Source: a virus (Duplodnaviria; Caudoviricetes). From it: 39,126 nucleotides of DNA. This document shows, piece after piece, positions 17,068 through 29,617 of this stretch (within the stretch, counting starts at the first letter, position 1; the number at the start of each line of letters is the position of its first letter). The notes below the pieces were generated by a model that saw nothing but the letters and a program-made list of their open reading frames with translations, had not been told where the DNA came from and made no database searches. Location of the stretch: IMG/VR virus record IMGVR_UViG_3300020045_005785, positions 1-39,126 of that record; one strand, given 5' to 3'. A program made the position numbers and the translations under genes.

Positions 17068-17985
17068 TTAGAAAAGTGTTGATTTATTAATATCGCCTCT
17101 GCCGTTCCAAAATATAGATTCAAAGACTTTCTTTTTATTATTAGTTGCGGACAAACTCGAGCGATGTTTAAACATTTCAATCTTTTCAAATGGTGCATCA
17201 TACTCAGATAAATAAGCGGGATATTCTAAATTTGCAAACCAATCATAAAATTCATCGTGATTGAAACCGCCCTCTTTATATTCTCCAGTTCCTTTATACG
17301 GAATATCACAATAAATAATTGGGTTGTTACCTATTATTTTTATATCTTGGTAGCTTTTATTATTTATCTGTAGGTTCTGTAGGTTCTGTAGGTTCTGTAG
17401 TCGTGTTAAGTGTTCTACTAATTCTAAGTTTTGAACATCGCACCTTTTTTCAGTTATTTTCTTAACGTGGCTACAAAATGCAATCCTACGCTTTTGAATA
17501 TCTTTTATTTTAAAAATACCATCCGTATTTAAACCTAACTTAAACATTGCGGTTTCATCTAAATTAACTATTAATTCGTGCGCAAGTCTTTTAAATTCCT
17601 CGATATCTGCACCATACAAATAAGATCTTTGACTATTACCAAAACTCCAACAACTCATTACAAAACCGCTATACCAATCCGCATCTTCATTGCTTTTATT
17701 TATTTGTTTATGAAACTCCTCACGAGTTACCCATTCGTAGAATTTATGCTCTAATTCTTTATTATCTTTTAAGTATGATACCAAACTATAAATGTGTTTA
17801 TTTAGTTCGTTATAATGTACGTTAAATCGATAATCACGAATAGCGGTAAAACTTATCGAACCACCACCTCCAAACAAATCATAAAAATCGGTTATTCCGT
17901 TATGACGTTGTGTAATCTTTTGTAAAATATCTGAAGCTAATTTTCGCTTGCTGCCCATATAGGGGATTCCTAATTTTTGTTTCAT
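17068..17985 (-). CDS. D12/Dam-like N6-adenine DNA methyltransferase
   Basis: PYMGSK, DLFGGGGS (SAM binding) and YCDIPY (variant of DPPY). Confidence 0.85.
   Translation of the reverse strand: MKQKLGIPYMGSKRKLASDILQKITQRHNGITDFYDLFGGGGSISFTAIRDYRFNVHYNELNKHIYSLVSYLKDNKELEHKFYEWVTREEFHKQINKSNEDADWYSGFVMSCWSFGNSQRSYLYGADIEEFKRLAHELIVNLDETAMFKLGLNTDGIFKIKDIQKRRIAFCSHVKKITEKRCDVQNLELVEHLTRLQNLQNLQNLQINNKSYQDIKIIGNNPIIYCDIPYKGTGEYKEGGFNHDEFYDWFANLEYPAYLSEYDAPFEKIEMFKHRSSLSATNNKKKVFESIFWNGRGDINKSTLF
17367..17400. repeat. in-frame 9-bp tandem repeat (TCTGTAGGT x3.8) encoding LQN repeats
   Basis: Directly visible. Confidence 0.9.
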
Positions 17986-21989: not shown

Positions 21990-22113
21990 AATTATCTATT
22001 TTTTAATTGTTTAATTTTCTATAATTCCTTAGCTTTTTGTAAAGCTATTAACGCTTTTGTTCTTAATGCTGATTGTGATTCGTAAACCCAATTAGTTATT
22101 GTTGCGCTCATAG

Positions 22114-22299
22114 TTATTTTAATGTTTTGATTTGCCAAACTCCAACTGCATATTCATATTTTTTCAACTCTTCATTTTCATAATTAAATGAAAAATGACA
22201 AACTTCATTTAATCCTTTATAGTTACAAACTAGTATTTTTGTAACCCAATTAGATAAAACATTACTACTTTCTACTATCCAATTTTTTTTCATAATCAA
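22114..22299 (-). CDS. hypothetical protein
   Basis: 61 aa in operon. Confidence 0.5.
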   Translation of the reverse strand: MIMKKNWIVESSNVLSNWVTKILVCNYKGLNEVCHFSFNYENEELKKYEYAVGVWQIKTLK

Positions 22300-22592
22300 T
22301 ATTTATTTAAAATTTCTTGTTTTTGTTTTTGTTCCTCGAATGATAAGTTTCCAAGCATAGAATACATTTCTTCAATGTCTTTTAGCTTTTTAAAATCGTT
22401 TTTCATTAATGCGATTTTCTCTGATAATTGCATATTCCATTGTTCCTCATTCTCTAATAATTGCTTTTGATATTGAGTAGCACGAATTTGATTCTTTAGT
22501 TTGTATTCTAAATTGTCATCGTTGACTTCCTCTGCTGTTTCCTCTTGGTTAGATGGATTTAGCGGGCTGTGGGTGTCGTAAGTGTCTAACAT
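22296..22592 (-). CDS. hypothetical coiled-coil protein
   Basis: 98 aa, first gene of the leftward transcript. Confidence 0.65.
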   Translation of the reverse strand: MLDTYDTHSPLNPSNQEETAEEVNDDNLEYKLKNQIRATQYQKQLLENEEQWNMQLSEKIALMKNDFKKLKDIEEMYSMLGNLSFEEQKQKQEILNKY

Positions 22593-22614
22593 AATTTATA
22601 TTTTTAAGTTTCGT

Positions 22615-22718
22615 CAAAGATAAAACTAATAATTGAATAAATTACACTTATGCGTTAATTTATAAACGTTCTAAATTACACTTATAATTTTTTTATGTGA
22701 CATTTATGTATATCTTTG
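22615..22718. promoter_or_regulatory. divergent promoter region with candidate operators
   Basis: TATCTTTG on minus (22615-22622) and plus (22711-22718); TAAATTACACTTAT at 22638 and 22672; imperfect palindrome at 22658-22676. Confidence 0.75.
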
Positions 22719-22740
22719 TTGAAAATAAAACTATAAAATT

Positions 22741-22992
22741 ATGGAAAATCAAGTGTACAGGGTTAATATGGAAAAAAGTGTCGATTTAGAATTTTATGTT
22801 TGTCACACAAACGAAATAGAACCATATAAATCAATTAGAGAAATAGGTATTCAATTAATTATTAACGATAAGCAACTTGATGCTTCATTAGAACCTCAGG
22901 AATTAGATTCTTTTATAAAGTATTTAATAGATTGTAAAAACTACATTACAAAATTTAACAAAGAAAGTATTCCAGAACCAAACGAAAAATAA
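22741..22992 (+). CDS. hypothetical protein
   Basis: 83 aa, first gene of the rightward transcript. Confidence 0.65.
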   Translation: MENQVYRVNMEKSVDLEFYVCHTNEIEPYKSIREIGIQLIINDKQLDASLEPQELDSFIKYLIDCKNYITKFNKESIPEPNEK

Positions 22993-22994
22993 AT

Positions 22995-23144
22995 ATGAAA
23001 AAACTACCAAAAGAACAGCACAAAAAACGGGTTTTACTATTCGTAGAACCCGAAATAGTGCAGGAATTGACAAAAGAAACGTGTCAATCGATTAGCAAAA
23101 CAGCAATCAAAAAAGAATATCGCAAACGTTTAAAAAATAAATAG
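22995..23144 (+). CDS. small basic protein, possibly ribbon-helix-helix (49 aa)
   Basis: Read manually: MKKLPKEQHKKRVLLFVEPEIVQEL... Confidence 0.55.
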   Translation: MKKLPKEQHKKRVLLFVEPEIVQELTKETCQSISKTAIKKEYRKRLKNK

Positions 23145-23282
23145 AGATGAAAGATAATTTAGAACAAATCAAAAGAGATGTTAGATTTATTACTATAATA
23201 GTTGCAGTTTTTGCAGGTGTAAAAATAGGACATTTTTTATTCTAGATTATTAATAACTTTTAGAAATCTATAAAAAAACATT

Positions 23283-23528
23283 ATGAAAACAGCAATGCAA
23301 GAATTTCAAAACAGAATACCAGATGCCTCACAAATAAAACAATATATTTTTGAAAATGATCCAGACGAAAAAATGCTTGATGAATGGTTATTTGAAATAA
23401 TATTTAAAGGCGTTGATTGGATTGAAAAAGAAAAAAAGCAGATTATTGATGCTAAATTAGATAAAGATTATTCAAATAGAATAGAAGGAGCAGAACAATA
23501 CTACAACGAAACATTTAAAAACGATTAA
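23283..23528 (+). CDS. hypothetical protein
   Basis: MKTAMQ..EKKQIIDA..AEQYYNETF, a pattern I recall from Bacteroidetes phages. Confidence 0.7.
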   Translation: MKTAMQEFQNRIPDASQIKQYIFENDPDEKMLDEWLFEIIFKGVDWIEKEKKQIIDAKLDKDYSNRIEGAEQYYNETFKND

Positions 23529-23530
23529 TT

Positions 23531-23845
23531 ATGAAAAAACTACTAAAATTACTCAAGTATCTAAACAACTTGACAAATAATCATCTAACTGCAAAGGAAG
23601 AAGCAGACCAGATATTAAAGTTCTTGCTATTGAAAAACTCCACTATCAAATCTATTGAGATTTGGGAAGCATTGGAAATAGCAATGGAATGCGAAATGAA
23701 GAAAAGAGAGAGTGAAGCAGCATACACTTGCCGTGCTATCAGCACAAAATGGAAATATCCTAGTAAAGTTTATGATCCAAACTTCGATAAACCATTATCA
23801 AATTTAGAAGTAGTTTATGAAATTGTAGAACCGGTAAAAAATTAG
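23531..23845 (+). CDS. hypothetical protein
   Basis: 104 aa, packed in the operon. Confidence 0.65.
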   Translation: MKKLLKLLKYLNNLTNNHLTAKEEADQILKFLLLKNSTIKSIEIWEALEIAMECEMKKRESEAAYTCRAISTKWKYPSKVYDPNFDKPLSNLEVVYEIVEPVKN

Positions 23846-23848
23846 ATT

Positions 23849-24109
23849 ATGGAATTTGAAAAATTAGAATTTGAGGCAATAAGTGGTTTTAAATCGTATC
23901 AAATTAGAAGGAAAGACAATCTAATAATTGCTGTAGTTACTGGTTTATCGAATAATGAAAATTTAAAGAACGCAACATTATTTGAATCAGCTCCAGAAAT
24001 GTTTGAAATGTTGAAAGATTTATTATCAATGTACACAAATACAGATAAGCCAAGTGTTAGGCTTATTTTAAATGCTAAACAACTACTAACAAAAATAACT
24101 GAATTATGA
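23849..24109 (+). CDS. hypothetical protein
   Basis: NA.L...APEM.E.L motif common in small phage proteins. Confidence 0.7.
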   Translation: MEFEKLEFEAISGFKSYQIRRKDNLIIAVVTGLSNNENLKNATLFESAPEMFEMLKDLLSMYTNTDKPSVRLILNAKQLLTKITEL

Positions 24110-24297
24110 TAGCAATAGCAATAATATTCATAATAGTTTTATTCTCATTTGTAATTGGTTTAATACTTATTTTAATCGAAGTAATCAATAAAAAGGATGA
24201 ACTTAAAAAGCAAGTTGAGGATTTAAACAAAGATAACAACGGTCTTTGTAAGGAAAATTTAGAGTTGATTGATAGGTTGATCAATGGTGGAATATAA
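24106..24297 (+). CDS. small membrane protein whose TAA stop forms the left boundary of the cassette array
   Basis: N-terminal TM helix plus coiled coil; ends GGAATATAA|C. Confidence 0.65.
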   Translation: MIAIAIIFIIVLFSFVIGLILILIEVINKKDELKKQVEDLNKDNNGLCKENLELIDRLINGGI

Positions 24298-24422
24298 CGG
24301 CGGACGCTACACGATGTCTGGGAAAAGCGCACACCCAGACTTCGGAAATGACAAATTAAAAAGGTGCAAAACAAACTTTAAATTTAACCCGAAACCCAGC
24401 TATTGTGTAGTATATATTACTG
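24292..24422 (-). repeat. attC-like site 1 (degenerate: ATTA in place of GTTA)
   Basis: TAAC 24295, arms CTACACGAT..CTGGG / CCCAG..ATTGTGTAG; homologous to site 8. Confidence 0.75.
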
Positions 24423-24450
24423 GCTGTGTTTTTATTCAACAACAAATATT

Positions 24451-24792
24451 ATGGCAACAAAAAATGGAATTGGATATTCTCCATTATCAGACAAAGTTTA
24501 TTTAGGAAAACAGAATACAGAAAAAGGAATGTGGACAGGCGCAAAAGAAGATATTACGCATCAATTTTTAGATGTATCGTTTGCTTATTTTGAAGAAAAC
24601 ACAATTAGGAATATCGGAAGTTCGGGAGGAAAAGAAAATCTTTTTATCAATGTGAAAAATGATAAAGCAGGAATTGAAAAGATAATTAAAAATCTAACTA
24701 AGCGGTTAGTTGAGCTAACATATCCAGTAACGTTAAAAATAAACGATGACAGCCTATGTACCAACACGCTTTCGGCTGTTATTGTTTATTGA
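24451..24792 (+). CDS. cassette A hypothetical protein (113 aa, MATKNGIGYSPLSDK...)
   Basis: ATG at 24451 after an AT-rich leader; reads through site 2. Confidence 0.65.
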   Translation: MATKNGIGYSPLSDKVYLGKQNTEKGMWTGAKEDITHQFLDVSFAYFEENTIRNIGSSGGKENLFINVKNDKAGIEKIIKNLTKRLVELTYPVTLKINDDSLCTNTLSAVIVY

Positions 24793-24801
24793 TTGTTACT
24801 G
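24725..24801 (-). repeat. attC-like site 2
   Basis: TAAC 24728, arms AATAAACGATGACAGCC / GGCTGTTATTGTTTATT, GTTA 24795. Confidence 0.85.
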
Positions 24802-24863
24802 GTTGTTTTTCTTTTTTTTTTTTACGTGCAAATGAAAATAAATTAAAAGTTTCTTTGAATAAG

Positions 24864-24895
24864 TTTGCGTATTCAAAATATAATGATTATCTTTG
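24864..24895 (+). promoter_or_regulatory. internal promoter of cassette B (TTTG-20 nt-TATCTTTG)
   Basis: Matches the Bacteroidetes -33/-7 consensus, 31 nt before the ATG at 24927. Confidence 0.75.
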
Positions 24896-24926
24896 AATAT
24901 TATTAATAATTAAAAAACATAATCTT

Positions 24927-25082
24927 ATGAAAAAAGTAATTGATGGGGATTTAATGGAATGTTTAGAAACTTTCAATCCAGAAGAAACTAATGAAATTTT
25001 GCAAAAATATGAAAATGAAGGAAGATGGGAAGATGTTTCAATAGATAGTGATGGCGATATAATTTTATATTCAGAATTATGA
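24927..25082 (+). CDS. cassette B ORF1, acidic 51-aa protein
   Basis: Read manually: MKKVIDGDLMECLETFNPEE...DSDGDIILYSEL; ATGA overlap with the next ORF. Confidence 0.65.
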   Translation: MKKVIDGDLMECLETFNPEETNEILQKYENEGRWEDVSIDSDGDIILYSEL

Positions 25083-25273
25083 AACTGGAACAAATAAAAA
25101 ATGATGAAATACTTGAAATTAATAGTAAGGTAATTCATAAAACCACTCTTGAAGTTGGAACATATATAGGCGAATGCTTAGGATTTGGAAAATGTAAAAT
25201 TGATTACGGAAATGGAGATGCCTATCCACAACCAAAAAGAAATATAATGAGAATAGCAAATTATGAAAATTAA
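25079..25273 (+). CDS. cassette B ORF2, 64-aa hypothetical
   Basis: Translationally coupled ORF. Confidence 0.65.
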   Translation: MKLEQIKNDEILEINSKVIHKTTLEVGTYIGECLGFGKCKIDYGNGDAYPQPKRNIMRIANYEN

Positions 25274-25415
25274 AAGAATATTACATTTGTATTGCCTAAC
25301 GTTTTGTTTATTATCAGTTCCTTTTGGAAGATTTTCAATATGGATAACTGTTATATCATTTATACACCTTATTCCAATAATGGTTTTATATTATGATAAA
25401 AAATTTAAACTATGA
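25263..25415 (+). CDS. cassette B ORF3, 50-aa hydrophobic (about 2 TM) protein
   Basis: Read manually: MKIKRILHLYCLTFCLLSVPFGRFSIWITVISFIHLIPIMVLYY... Confidence 0.55.
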   Translation: MKIKRILHLYCLTFCLLSVPFGRFSIWITVISFIHLIPIMVLYYDKKFKL

Positions 25416-25567
25416 AAAAAGATAATAGAGGAGGCTCTCGCTTAAATGCGGGAGCTAAACCAAAGTATAATGAACCGACCAAAACAATGGCTTTTCGTAT
25501 TCCTATATCAAAAAACGATGAAGTCAAAAAGTTAGTCAGAGAAATTTTGGCAGGTTACGAGAGATAA
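25412..25567 (+). CDS. cassette B ORF4, 51-aa probable ribbon-helix-helix DNA-binding protein
   Basis: Read manually: MKKDNRGGSRLNAGAKPKYNEPTKTMAFRIP... Confidence 0.65.
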   Translation: MKKDNRGGSRLNAGAKPKYNEPTKTMAFRIPISKNDEVKKLVREILAGYER

Positions 25568-25573
25568 AATAGC

Positions 25574-25650
25574 CAGTAACGGTTCGCAGCCTTGTACTGC
25601 CGCCTATGCGGTTGCGAGATTTTGGCGGTAGTTCAAGACTGCTGTTATAG
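25574..25650 (-). repeat. attC-like site 3
   Basis: TAAC 25577, arms GCAGCCTTGTACTGCCGCC / GGCGGTAGTTCAAGACTGC, GTTA 25644; near copy of site 7. Confidence 0.88.
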
Positions 25651-25681
25651 GCAGGACGGCAATTTAAAAACAAATATTCTT

Positions 25682-26131
25682 ATGAAAAAAATACACATCA
25701 ATAACGATGATAATTATGCAACCCCTCCAGAATTGTACGAGGAATTGAATAAACGATTTAATTTTGATTTTGATCCTTGCCCTTACAATGAAAATGAAAT
25801 TGTAAACGATGGATTAAAAATTGAATGGGGAAAATCAAATTTTGTAAATCCTCCTTACAGCCAAAAACTAAAACAGCAATTTGTAAAAAAAGCAGTTGAG
25901 GAAATGAAAAAAGGAAAAGTTTCTGTTTTTCTTATTCCTGTATCTACAAGTACAAAATTATTTCACGAATGGATCAAACCAAACGCAAGTGAAATTGAGT
26001 TCTTAAAAGGTAGAATTAAGTTTGGGAAACGAGATCAAAATGGAAATTTCTATTTACCATTAAACGATGAAGGAAAAACACAATCAGGCACAAAAGATAG
26101 TATGATAGTCGTCTTTGGATCTCTATCGTAG
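25682..26131 (+). CDS. cassette C: phage-type N6-adenine DNA methyltransferase (149 aa)
   Basis: YATP, FDFDPC, NPPYS, VFLIP.ST.T..FH and FLKGRIKF motifs. Confidence 0.85.
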   Translation: MKKIHINNDDNYATPPELYEELNKRFNFDFDPCPYNENEIVNDGLKIEWGKSNFVNPPYSQKLKQQFVKKAVEEMKKGKVSVFLIPVSTSTKLFHEWIKPNASEIEFLKGRIKFGKRDQNGNFYLPLNDEGKTQSGTKDSMIVVFGSLS

Positions 26132-26137
26132 TCTTGC

Positions 26138-26267
26138 CTATAACGGAAAAGATTGTCGTGGTTGGGATAAAATAAAAACAGATAATTAAATTTAAAACAA
26201 AACTGAAAGATGAAAAACAATGTAAAAGTTCAAGACAATACCCAATCACTACAATCGTGTGTTAGTG
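26138..26267 (-). repeat. attC-like site 4
   Basis: TAAC 26141, arms GATTGTCGTGGTTGGG / CCCAATCACTACAATC, GTTA 26261. Confidence 0.85.
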
Positions 26268-26392
26268 ATAGTGCTACTATTTTTGAAGTAGAATTGTACC
26301 GATTTATAAATAAGCACGTAAAAAATGGATTGTCAAAAACTGATTTAATTCACAAAATGAAATACGTTCTTAAATCTTGTGAATTGTCGTGA
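26210..26392 (+). CDS. cassette D ORF1 (60 aa), starting inside the loop of site 4
   Basis: ATG at 26210 after an A-rich leader; no in-frame ATG soon after the site. Confidence 0.5.
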   Translation: MKNNVKVQDNTQSLQSCVSDSATIFEVELYRFINKHVKNGLSKTDLIHKMKYVLKSCELS

Positions 26393-26429
26393 GGTTTTTA
26401 AATAAAAAATAACTAATAAAATCAAAATT

Positions 26430-26597
26430 ATGAGAATATCAGAAGTAGAAGTAGGATTTAAGTTTGAACACGGAATAAAAGGAGATTGTGTCGTTATTGC
26501 AAAGACACCAAGAACAATAACTATTAAACATAAGTTCGGAACAACAAAAACAACTTTTCGTTATAAAGACGCTTATTTTTCACCTTCGGATTTTTAG
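26430..26597 (+). CDS. cassette D ORF2 (55 aa, MRISEVEVGFKFEHG...)
   Basis: Read manually; ends just before site 5. Confidence 0.65.
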   Translation: MRISEVEVGFKFEHGIKGDCVVIAKTPRTITIKHKFGTTKTTFRYKDAYFSPSDF

Positions 26598-26615
26598 CTA
26601 TTCAAACCGCATTAT

Positions 26616-26706
26616 CACTAACGGCGGATGATAGTGGCTGTTTGCCACTACAAAAGTTGTTTCGGAGGAAAATGGTTGTGCAAATAGCCATTATCATTTG
26701 TTATCA
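26616..26706 (-). repeat. attC-like site 5
   Basis: TAAC 26619, arms ATGATAGTGGCTGTTTGC / GCAAATAGCCATTATCAT, GTTA 26700. Confidence 0.88.
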
Positions 26707-26751
26707 GCATACCACTTAACACAATTTTTAAACAATTTAAAACACATAAAA

Positions 26752-27042
26752 ATGAACAAAGCAGATTTTTTTAAAAAGAACGACGAAAAATTTTTACCGT
26801 TAGGATTCGAAAAAGACGAATTAGACCCAATGTTTTTTTATTCAAAAAGTTTGGTTTCAGATGAAGAAATCGAAGAAAATGGAATGGACGAAGATGATGT
26901 TCCAAAATTACTATTTGGAAATACGGGAATTAACAGAGGCTTTTGCATTTATACAGGCGTTCATTTCGTTTGGCTCGGATGCGGAACTCCAGAGGAAGCA
27001 ATTAAATTTTCTGAAAATATAGTTGCATTTGAAGAATGTTGA
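26752..27042 (+). CDS. cassette E acidic hypothetical protein (96 aa)
   Basis: ATG at 26752; fills the cassette. Confidence 0.7.
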   Translation: MNKADFFKKNDEKFLPLGFEKDELDPMFFYSKSLVSDEEIEENGMDEDDVPKLLFGNTGINRGFCIYTGVHFVWLGCGTPEEAIKFSENIVAFEEC

Positions 27043-27059
27043 GCGACTCCAACGGTTGC

Positions 27060-27135
27060 TGATAACGTTAAAACTACACGCTGGTTGCCTATTTATTCCA
27101 ATGCTTCGGCAACTAGCTTGTAGTGATTGTTATAT
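27060..27135 (-). repeat. attC-like site 6
   Basis: TAAC 27063, arms ACTACACGCTGGTTGCC / GGCAACTAGCTTGTAGT, GTTA 27129; same ends as site 2. Confidence 0.88.
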
Positions 27136-27171
27136 TCTCGGCTTTTTTTACTCATTAAATAAATTAAAACA

Positions 27172-27465
27172 ATGAAAGCAAATAAAGAAAAATTAGATAT
27201 AATATTCAATTATTATACCCAAAATGAACTAGCAATTGCATTAGGAATTACGCAATGGAAGTTATTGCAAAAAATGCAAAATGATGATTTTACTCAGGTA
27301 GAAATCAATGATATTGACCGTATTTTTGAAAAAGAAATTAAGGAATCAAAAGAATATATCCACGATGTATTTATGGGAAAAATTAAAATACCACAAGATA
27401 TTTTAGATAAATCTTTTGAAGGTACAAAAGGAAAAATATTAAAATGGATTCCTGATAAAAAATAA
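27172..27465 (+). CDS. cassette F Cro/CI-like HTH protein (97 aa)
   Basis: YTQNELAIALGITQWKL..K....DFT..EI pattern. Confidence 0.65.
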   Translation: MKANKEKLDIIFNYYTQNELAIALGITQWKLLQKMQNDDFTQVEINDIDRIFEKEIKESKEYIHDVFMGKIKIPQDILDKSFEGTKGKILKWIPDKK

Positions 27466-27514
27466 CTAAATTTCAGCAAGAGTAGCTTTGGTTACAAAGT
27501 TGCTCGAAGCTGGA

Positions 27515-27590
27515 ATATAACGATTAGCAGCCTTGTACTGCCGCTATGCGGTTACGTAAATTCGGCGGTAGTTCAAGACTGCTGTTATGA
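27515..27590 (-). repeat. attC-like site 7
   Basis: TAAC 27518, GTTA 27584; arms nearly identical to site 3. Confidence 0.88.
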
Positions 27591-27623
27591 CCAGTGCCTA
27601 TACTAATTTTTAAATATAAACAA

Positions 27624-27953
27624 ATGAAACAATTACAGAAAAAAGATAAAGACAAAGTTGAACAAGTAAAGCAACAAGTTCAAGAAATACAAACTGTTTT
27701 TGATAGCAGAATTAGACCTCAAAAAAATCACACTTTATTTGAAATAAATATTGTTGAAAAAACAATTGAAAAAGCGGTGTTTGATGAATTACCAATTGTA
27801 AAATGGGAAGATGCCGTAAAAGGCAATATATCAACTCAAAATAAAGTGACTAAGAAAATAGACTGCATTTATATTTCTGCTTTAAATCGAAAGAATGTTG
27901 TTAAAATTTTAAAACGTGATTTTAAGCAGGATGTTTCGTGGCATTGGTCATAA
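27624..27953 (+). CDS. cassette G hypothetical protein (109 aa)
   Basis: ATG at 27624; its stop codon is the TAA of the TAAC box. Confidence 0.7.
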   Translation: MKQLQKKDKDKVEQVKQQVQEIQTVFDSRIRPQKNHTLFEINIVEKTIEKAVFDELPIVKWEDAVKGNISTQNKVTKKIDCIYISALNRKNVVKILKRDFKQDVSWHWS

Positions 27954-28079
27954 CGGCGGACGCTAACCGATGTTCAGGAAAAGTAATGACTGAACTTTCG
28001 GATTATTACAAATCTTACAGACACAAAACACATTTTAAATTTAACCTAAAGCCTGAATAGCGGTTAGCGTATGTTATCA
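27948..28079 (-). repeat. attC-like site 8
   Basis: TAAC 27951, arms ACGCTAACCGATGTTCAGG / CCTGAATAGCGGTTAGCGT, GTTA 28073. Confidence 0.88.
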
Positions 28080-28103
28080 CTTCGGCTTTTTAAATACAAT
28101 ATT

Positions 28104-28280
28104 ATGAACTTATTGACAGGTACAGTTACGGAAGTTTTATCAGAACCATTTATCCAATATAATAAATGGTGGGTAAAAGTAAAATACAATTGCTACGGCA
28201 GAATATCAGAAACAGAATTAATGTTTAACAGTATAGATTCAGCTTCAAAAGTTGATGTCGGTTTTGAGTTCGACTGTTAA
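28104..28280 (+). CDS. cassette H hypothetical protein (58 aa)
   Basis: ATG at 28104; fills the cassette. Confidence 0.7.
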   Translation: MNLLTGTVTEVLSEPFIQYNKWWVKVKYNCYGRISETELMFNSIDSASKVDVGFEFDC

Positions 28281-28285
28281 GCTGA

Positions 28286-28315
28286 GTGATAACTCTCTTA
28301 TTAGACCAACTCACC
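28286..28315 (-). other. candidate attI-like entry site (lone GTTA core with no hairpin)
   Basis: The minus strand reads GAGTTGGTCTAATAAGAGAG^TTATCAC; this closes cassette H. Confidence 0.5.
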
Positions 28316-28331
28316 ACAAAAACCCTTGAAA

Positions 28332-28625
28332 ATGTTGGAAAAACCCCTTGACAACACTTATTTTATCGAGTATTCAAATTACTTCGAATTTGAGGGCAAA
28401 ACCTTTTCTTTTCGTAAAAAAGAGTTATTTGATATAACCGGTATACCAAAACATATTGAATTGAAAAACAACAATAATTGTTTTGGGTATTGGATTAGTA
28501 GAAAATGGTTGTCATTGTCTAAAATAAAAGAAATGATAATAAATGAACCAAAAAAAGTTGATGTATCAGATTTACAATGGTACAATCAAATAAAATTAGA
28601 TCACGTCTTTAATTTAGGCAAATAA
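28332..28625 (+). CDS. hypothetical protein
   Basis: Last plus-strand ORF; overlaps the 3' end of the spanin gene. Confidence 0.65.
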   Translation: MLEKPLDNTYFIEYSNYFEFEGKTFSFRKKELFDITGIPKHIELKNNNNCFGYWISRKWLSLSKIKEMIINEPKKVDVSDLQWYNQIKLDHVFNLGK

Positions 28626-29014
28626 AACCACAAGAAAATAAAACCGCAAACGATTAAAGCGATAAACACCCATAAAATAGTGTTATCACTTCTTTCAGTT
28701 TGTTTCTTTTTTTCAGTAGTAATAGTTTTAGTAATGTATCTATCTTTCCATTTTTCTACAATCTTAGTTTTATCATTTGAAATAATAGTATTATGATACG
28801 TTTTTCCTTCGATAACCATAGGTTTAAGCGCATCAAATGGTTTGTATGTAAAAGCATCACCTAATACTATTTTCGTGCCTTGTGAGTAGTTATTTTCTAC
28901 GTGTATAGAATCTTTTATTTGAGTGTCAGTTTTTCGAGTTCCGCCACAAGACATTGCCAGCATTGCCAAAGATAATAACAGTAAAAAAATAAGTAGTTCA
29001 AATATTTTTTTCAT
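28601..29014 (-). CDS. probable unimolecular spanin (likely start MKKIFE at 29014)
   Basis: Lipoprotein signal ending LAMS-C plus a C-terminal TM helix, downstream of the endolysin. Confidence 0.7.
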   Translation of the reverse strand: MKKIFELLIFLLLLSLAMLAMSCGGTRKTDTQIKDSIHVENNYSQGTKIVLGDAFTYKPFDALKPMVIEGKTYHNTIISNDKTKIVEKWKDRYITKTITTEKKKQTERSDNTILWVFIALIVCGFIFLWFYLPKLKT

Positions 29015-29035
29015 AATTTTTATTTCAAAGATAAT

Positions 29036-29065
29036 AAAAAACCCGATGCAAAAAGTATCGGGTTT
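29036..29065 (-). terminator. intrinsic terminator after the endolysin
   Basis: AAACCCGAT..ATCGGGTTT stem with a T-run on the minus strand. Confidence 0.7.
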
Positions 29066-29146
29066 AGTTTTTGGTTTTGCACACCTCAACTTTGTTCTGT
29101 AGCGAATATCAAAACTACAACAAATATTGTTAAGAATGAATATAAA

Positions 29147-29617
29147 TTATAATATTGGTTTTATCTCAAAATGCATCCAATCATAATTTTTTTCTACTCC
29201 CAACGAGACAAATCCGTGTTTATAGAAAATATTAATCATTGGTTTATACTCTGGACGTGCAAATCTTGCAGTTTTAGACGTTTCTTTTAATTGATTTCTT
29301 TCAGGATCTAAATCTATTGCAATCCCCCAAGAATGGCGGGAATAGTCAGAGCCCCCTCTCATTTGTCTAAAATTAAAACAACCTCCAAACAAATCTATTC
29401 CCAATTCTTGTATTTTTTCAAGTCCGTAATGGTCAAGTAAATCTTTAAATACTTCTGTAAAATTCTTAGCTACTAATTTATGACAACGCATTTTTTTAAC
29501 CGTTGTTTTTTTATCCCAAGCCAAACGCATAGGATAAGGTAAATCTATTGTAGTTAAATAACTCCCTTGTTGGTTTGGTTTTCCAAAATCTTTTATTGCT
29601 TGTGCTGTTGTTATCAT
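29147..29617 (-). CDS. endolysin, peptidase M15 family
   Basis: Zn-binding motifs [10 protein letters not shown] and DWMHFE. Confidence 0.88.

Follow-up and report, generated by a model that had tools for sequence, protein, structure and literature searches.

The closest described systems to the locus reported here are integron arrays (IntI, attI, attC; Nivina et al. 2016, PMC5027507), with which it and its host counterparts have in common units bounded by AAC and GTT cores, self-complementary unit ends, one strand that folds better than the other, and a docking site without a hairpin next to a tyrosine recombinase with a predicted structure that has VchIntIA as its closest solved fold. In lytic phages, the accessible portion of Qi et al. 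(2023, PMC9892861) describes CALINs (attC-site clusters that have no integron-integrase), integrase-less groups of attC-like sites that often carry a DNA methyltransferase gene; it reports cassettes in the typical orientation or in 'divergent directions', with no systematic inversion and no cognate recombinase named there. The whole stretch of DNA analysed here (virus record IMGVR_UViG_3300020045_005785, hereafter the window) is a single contig with a terminal overlap and comprises an entire circular phage genome of 39,126 bp. It carries an array of hairpin sites that is a CALIN by definition (at least two attC-type sites and no integrase) if variant sites are counted as attC. Unlike integron cassettes, the phage genes occupy the bottom strand and follow their own hairpins, and the hairpins have no extrahelical bases and have conserved G.T wobbles. 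We consider it probable that the array consists of eight hairpin-first units that are gained and lost at AAC, are moved by an integron-like tyrosine recombinase supplied by a Bacteroidota host, and have their polarity set by phage transcription.

Eight hairpin sites span 24295-28076 and, together with a lone core at 28290, bound eight units. Sites 2-8 read TAACG..TGTTA on the plus strand and site 1 ends in ATTA; the initial annotation, which had read the locus as a lone core followed by eight units of cargo and hairpin, proved correct at every position. The AAC/GTT cores are intact in seven of the eight sites, the right core of site 1 being ATT, and since a copy of site 1 in locus L018 (94% identical) keeps GTTA, the change is a G>A at 24416. 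The bases after the GTT of each site pair with the bases before the next AAC, which gives eight closed units of 339-849 bp; no hairpin follows the lone TAAC at 28290, and the 12 nt preceding it pair with the 12 nt following site 8. A stem detector run over the whole genome recovered 7/8 sites and two weaker hits elsewhere, and found none in each of five shuffled genomes; an Rfam scan of 22000-29500 gave nothing at the gathering level. All cargo open reading frames (ORFs) are on the plus strand, as annotated, and the purine fraction on that strand is 0.54-0.60 for every cargo. The features are as follows.

24106..24298, plus: left boundary, an ordinary phage gene that takes its stop from the TAA of site 1, with a cassette-type tail and no matching upstream leader
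24295..24419, plus: site 1 hairpin, ending ATTA (right core GTT changed to ATT at 24416)
24298..24730, plus: unit 1, hairpin 1 and a DUF7446 gene (Pfam) at 24451-24792 that reads into site 2
24728..24798, plus: site 2 hairpin
24731..25579, plus: unit 2, hairpin 2, a promoter-like motif at 24864-24895, and ORFs 24927-25082, 25079-25273 and 25412-25567
25577..25647, plus: site 3 hairpin, of the same family as site 7
25580..26143, plus: unit 3, hairpin 3 and a Dam-family adenine methyltransferase at 25682-26131 (PF05869, above cut-off)
26141..26264, plus: site 4 hairpin, with ORF 26210-26392 starting in its loop
26144..26621, plus: unit 4, hairpin 4 and ORFs 26210-26392 and 26430-26597
26619..26703, plus: site 5 hairpin
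26622..27065, plus: unit 5, hairpin 5 and ORF 26752-27042
27063..27132, plus: site 6 hairpin, with matches in Flavobacterium-genus genomes G265 (100%, 69 nt) and G099
27066..27520, plus: unit 6, hairpin 6 and ORF 27172-27465
27518..27587, plus: site 7 hairpin, of the same family as site 3
27521..27953, plus: unit 7, hairpin 7 and ORF 27624-27953 (phrog_15043), terminated by the TAA of site 8
27951..28076, plus: site 8 hairpin, matched at 86% by the attI-proximal cassette in genome G047
27954..28292, plus: unit 8, hairpin 8 and ORF 28104-28280 (phrog_8110)
28290..28310, plus: lone core, a putative attI-like docking site, partially matching the phage/host consensus

The ends of a unit are complementary whether its hairpin is assigned to the gene before it or behind it, and therefore only homologues can decide which gene owns a hairpin. 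In L018, hairpin 1 and cargo 1 occur alone, 94% identical to unit 1 and with AAC at both ends, and in L006 hairpin 3 and the methyltransferase gene recur, 83% identical to unit 3, from TAAC to TAAC. Comparison of the cultured phages 2A and FPSV-D15 shows two whole units inserted at one AAC, at which junction the following hairpin remains with the gene behind it. Among pairs with cargo identity of at least 75%, drawn from 315 units of the retrieved loci, the upstream hairpin is common to 7 of the 9 phage-phage pairs and the downstream hairpin to none (0/9), which bears out the proposal that each gene lies downstream of its own site; the pattern that would have refuted it, a hairpin moving with the gene before it, was not observed. 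The host-host pairs, all from one genome (G002), show the same pattern. Contigs from two other sequencing runs cover 26699-27066/7 (unit 5) near-identically, and several contigs from four runs terminate at TAAC, though unitig ends at repeats are weak evidence; the runs listed as containing window sequence included no RNA run, the best share being 0.12. The crossover lies within the plus-strand AAC; homologue mapping thus upheld, to the level of that core, the position predicted in the initial annotation. These boundaries bear on a reading of the hairpins as RNA elements (terminators, processing sites) or as repeats for phage homologous recombination only. The more stable strand is indeed the mRNA strand, some ORFs start in hairpin loops, and the window phage encodes a YqaJ/RecE-type exonuclease; however, breakpoints fall within AAC between dissimilar hairpins, the two ends of each unit are complementary with a fixed wobble although they lie 250-800 nt apart, and hosts carry the same sites on the opposite strand beside a recombinase. 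We regard this reading as extremely unlikely.

Polarity was compared in loci collected by hairpin pattern alone, counted cassettes being required to have at least 6/8 complementary end bases; W denotes the strand that reads AACG..TGTT. In viral loci 130 of 139 cassettes have their longest ORF on W, and W holds the majority on 48 of 51 contigs; in bacterial loci only 2 of 31 cassettes have it there, and 10 of 12 contigs are opposite to phage. Stated in integron terms, 29 of the 31 host cassettes have canonical polarity (a top-strand gene with its own site downstream) and all eight window units are inverted, with the gene neither on the top strand nor upstream of its own site. Nine Flavobacterium-genus loci have 60 of 70 units anti-W, the host type, and in L368, a related phage whose array is flipped in the genome, the genes are flipped along with the array. 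Host arrays are canonical and phage arrays are inverted; the inverted polarity that had been noticed in the window is confirmed as real, beyond chance and general. Cassettes exchanged between phage and host would likely arrive backwards and be poorly expressed.

The phage loci also bear on the origin of cassettes. In L014 the cargo 8 gene recurs at 96-97% identity, framed by a different hairpin and by different ends that once more complement each other; cargo 7 is present in two further frames (L010, L011) and, with no cassette around it, in three cases (L012, L013, L024); cargo 1 is found twice outside cassettes; and the second ORF of unit 4 (26430-26597) has another cassette frame in phage 2A. 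Unrelated cargo is held by 16 of 33 same-frame pairs, in which identity stops 12-51 nt inside the ends. Since the same gene is found in different frames and outside cassettes, phage genes appear to have been framed repeatedly. Both observations would also suit a polarity that is a founder or replication-strand effect and not an expression barrier, one ancestral phage array having pointed this way and new cassettes being formed from resident phage genes that already face the direction of transcription. Such an origin needs no selection against host cassettes and fits the recombination part of the explanation we prefer; on the other hand, the polarity persists across unrelated phage contigs of 5-310 kb and in the flipped array, which a single founder explains less easily. 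We think it rather unlikely that polarity arose in this way, and retain phage transcription as its probable cause.

In reconstructed circle junctions the plus strand folds better than the minus strand in 8/8 window units, as the initial annotation had supposed, and more widely the bottom (W) strand folds better in 157/160 phage and 24/30 host junctions. In Table S3, part of the portion of Qi et al. (2023, PMC9892861) seen, the canonical bottom strands of aadA7 and PH101 attC1/2 read TAACG..TGTTA, and the plus strand of the window is therefore the bottom-strand equivalent. Inner stems pair in one ungapped register, offset by 2-4 nt and with mismatches, and extrahelical bases near the L box were not found in them. 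It had been claimed that most arm mismatches are G.T wobbles, which does not hold: 13 of the 29 inner-stem mismatches in the window are G.T, 4 are C.A and 12 are other, though one inner-stem G.T position is kept in 8/8 sites. Across the retrieved loci an outer-stem G.T at position 8 on W is present in 131/160 phage and 23/30 host cassettes, and an inner-stem G.T at the mirror position in 199/232 phage hairpins and 24/41 host hairpins, with 16 more host hairpins having it shifted by one position. The conserved G.T pairs become C.A mismatches on the opposite strand, which gives a hint of how the strand is chosen; from this structure we infer that two symmetric G.T wobbles and the 2-4 nt bulge take over strand choice from extrahelical bases. 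A host-strand promoter motif inside the hairpins was also considered and rejected, its occurrence (25/230 phage, 16/137 host) being within the shuffle range.

In all five Bacteroidota genomes with arrays that were searched, the best hit to the integron integrase model TIGR02249 lies at the W-downstream end of the array and points into it. These linked enzymes score 145-188 bits against a cut-off of 265, and canonical IntI is over that cut-off in none of the five genomes. Residues R, K, H, R, H and Y are invariant across 40 sequences of the linked enzyme, the IntI insertion region has 22 residues as compared to 64 in VchIntIA (about 42 fewer), and a structural model has VchIntIA (2a3v) as the closest solved fold. 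The enzyme differs from IntI in this missing insertion, in an extra N-terminal domain in hosts, and in being co-oriented with the cargo. Its best NCBIfam score is to the XerA/XerC-like simple tyrosine recombinases (NF040815), below cut-off, with which it has in common the intact R-K-H-R-H-Y set and the lack of the IntI insertion; unlike them it is linked to single-strand hairpin cassette arrays, and the same genomes give distinct hits for XerC/D-like genes. The linked recombinase is present in 59/151 genomes of the genus of G006 (Flavobacterium), and its ORF is intact in 28 of 30 loci. Of the 22 loci with enough DNA, 12 have hairpin sites no more than 1.5 kb away on the 3' side of the recombinase, and on its 5' side sites are present in 0/28; the recombinase regions of L094/G008, G010 and G007 show no site within the DNA retrieved. 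An attI-like motif, AACT(A/T)GTATATA, stands about 104 bp from the recombinase stop in 17/21 loci. Phage arrays end in a lone core that resembles this host motif (48 ends); that of the window matches it in part, and its position before the same gene is found again in L011 and L367. The extra N-terminal domain of the host enzyme (L381 2353-2538, residues 1-62) has invariant F, W and W and is absent from the short phage forms described below; it has no fold match at E<=0.001, the only leads being SMARCAL1 HARP at E 0.78 and DUF5710 in 13/29 members.

These data weigh on whether the sites are ordinary attC sites for canonical IntI and the array a plain CALIN. The AAC/GTT cores, the 7-nt right-arm spacing and the bottom-strand folding bias are all attC-like, but the extrahelical bases are missing, TIGR02249 is over cut-off in 0/5 host genomes, and the linked enzyme is about 42 residues short of the IntI insertion. 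Moreover, P12002L_attC1, which belongs to the window site family and precedes a methyltransferase gene on the coding strand, failed to recombine when phage attC clusters were tested with IntI1, according to the part of Qi et al. (2023, PMC9892861) consulted; the P12002L attC2 given there is the far end of the P12002L_attC1 unit, read on the other strand. We judge this possibility very unlikely. The array is integron-like and yet fails the IntI, extrahelical-base and gene-orientation tests, and is therefore a variant and not a plain member; the window sites, which had been taken for canonical attC, are a Bacteroidota variant. With attG/SALIN insertions (SALIN, single attC site lacking an integron-integrase), as described in the portion of Loot et al. 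(10.1101/2022.09.11.507474) seen, it has in common cassettes entering at a short core away from the integrase; attG needs only GWT, whereas the lone cores here have a longer consensus in common with the host attI-like site, and arrays grow there.

The window phage encodes no integrase or recombinase of its own as judged by a PHROGs scan of its 51 ORFs and a recombinase search that returned none at E<=10, and a host-supplied enzyme is therefore likely. Cassettes could instead be moved mainly by the short recombinases of other phages, during co-infection or from prophages, or by one that the phage once owned, with the host enzyme playing a minor part. A shorter relative of 267-294 aa does lie directly after the lone core in seven phage loci and in the cultured Polaribacter phage Leef_1, and genome G023 contains a prophage array; but a nearby recombinase is missing from most phage arrays (of about 150 viral loci screened, which are partial, 6 have one), host arrays contain docked hairpins like those of the window, and the lone cores of phages are similar to host attI. 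This alternative appears unlikely to us, and movement by the host enzyme is retained.

Cassettes of phage polarity lie antisense in Flavobacterium chromosomal arrays, as the initial annotation had foreseen for a host integron. Host arrays contain 10 W-oriented units, of which four combine a long ORF with a W strand rich in purines; adding the first cassette of G047, which was judged by eye, brings the number of phage-polarity cassettes to about five. For three of them there are matches to phage families (an exonuclease, a NUMOD4-HNH protein and phrog_25872). The hairpin of the G047 cassette resembles window site 8 at 86%, and this cassette is docked directly at the attI-like site, which argues that the two pools exchange; a G099 cassette has a site-6-type hairpin, and host-polarity genes occur in a few phage arrays. 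Searches for the cargo itself in the other pool were negative: tblastx of 70 host cargos against the collected viral loci gave no match, no relatives of the G047 first cassette were found in viral contigs, and DNA comparison of two host regions with phage-polarity cassettes with GenBank phages gave only distant exonuclease and hairpin matches. Host arrays also contained three other elements. One unit of about 7 kb (L351 6887-13163, G099) carries DndD-like and DndH/HerA-like defence-type genes. A two-gene element encoding a 180-aa tyrosine recombinase and a 387-aa IS91-type Y2 transposase is found at L349 4378-6071 and in four further copies (G265:C1 993001-1013000), and since four of the five copies start about 475 bp after a hairpin site, site targeting is suggested. 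Finally, an array of about 50 sites (G002:C6 15500-50000, L291-L293) repeats a 353-bp cassette without a clear ORF in many copies that are 95-100% identical.

The 51 ORFs of the window include terminase, portal, capsid, tail, helicase, primase, exonuclease and endolysin genes. Almost all window genes are on the minus strand, and 22.7-28.6 kb forms a plus-strand island. At the strand switch is a divergent promoter-like pair:

22615-22622, minus, promoter-like motif TATCTTTG
22711-22718, plus, promoter-like motif TATCTTTG

These calls use the motif TAnnTTTG, which we take to be a Bacteroidota promoter motif, and the pair is likely where the plus-strand unit leading into the array begins. Between the two motifs a direct repeat, TTACACTTAT, at about 22643 and 22678 may provide regulator sites. 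Among GenBank phages the array DNA matches 37 Flavobacterium and 2 Cellulophaga phage records, from which we infer a Flavobacterium-type host. The tail of the left-boundary gene resembles that of unit 6, and a counterpart of the gene is found in L022; the related phage L365 has this left-flank gene and no array at the corresponding place. The unit 6 tail (27474-27521) recurs at window 24287-24298 and in L022, and with other cargo in L001, L002, L010 and L023, while the L368 array terminates in a leader matching that tail, with the tail itself absent. Cargo 1 (24451-24792) has lost a stop that is present in L018, hence its ORF runs through hairpin 2. Among 230 phage units the first ATG-started ORF begins within the hairpin in 102, and in 54 its stop is the TAA of TAAC; within the window, unit 4 is an example of the former and unit 7 of the latter. 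A second DNA methyltransferase gene (phrog_56) lies outside the array at 17068-17985.

The unit boundaries, the opposite polarity, the association of these sites with a single recombinase family and a single attI-like site, and the phage-polarity cassettes in hosts are supported directly. By analogy with IntI, for which cut position and strand rules are given in the part of Nivina et al. (2016, PMC5027507) consulted, the plus strand would fold as single-stranded DNA and be cut between AA and C, and cassettes would leave in circular form and be inserted at the lone core (28290). The two symmetric G.T wobbles and the bulge would select the strand in place of extrahelical bases, and cassette polarity would follow the phage's own transcription, so that phage-made cassettes would be read in the phage and be antisense in a host array, and host cassettes, some of them defence-like, would lie antisense in the phage. 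Several points weigh against this account. The crossover is resolved to AAC only, the exact AA^C cut being taken from IntI, and the host is assigned to the Flavobacterium type from sequence matches. Two of the nine phage cargo pairs have neither hairpin in common, so cargo also moves by other routes. Unit 2 has its own promoter-like motif and therefore does not need the array polarity, and since the lone core of the window fits only partially and the core of site 1 is mutated, part of the activity of this array may have been lost. A search of 401 genomes, with two candidates scored per genome, gave no window cargo gene inside a host array. Finally, PADLOC matches are present in only 12/81 host cargo proteins, several of them weak, and in 0/6 of the host-polarity genes in phage arrays; the former count is modest support for a barrier against defence cassettes.

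No publication describing phage cassettes of inverted polarity, or this Bacteroidota system, came up in literature searches, whose coverage does not extend to subscription journals or to bioRxiv supplements. In the portions of these papers seen, integrons are described as rare in Bacteroidetes (Neron 2022) and the IntI insertion as essential for integron function (Smyshlyaev 2021). A cassette system present in about 40% of the sampled Flavobacterium-genus genomes, with an enzyme that lacks the insertion, would widen the definition of integrons and would show another way of recognizing folded DNA. From the phages comes a further rule, absent from the literature searched, namely opposite polarity with occasional exchange, and the same phage genes in different frames and outside any frame provide before-and-after pairs for the question of cassette origin. 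The cultured phages 2A, FPSV-D15, 11b, Leef_1 and P12002L carry such arrays, and experimental tests are therefore practical. More tentatively, and as a possibility somewhat short of even, Bacteroidota and their phages may share a second integron lineage in which a recombinase that lacks the IntI insertion reads wobble-marked DNA hairpins, and in which phage cassettes are formed from resident genes and kept back to front, the cassettes of either side thus falling antisense in the other. If true, one enzyme serves two pools, the polarity is a barrier against host defence cassettes, and the arrays hold a visible record of cassette making.

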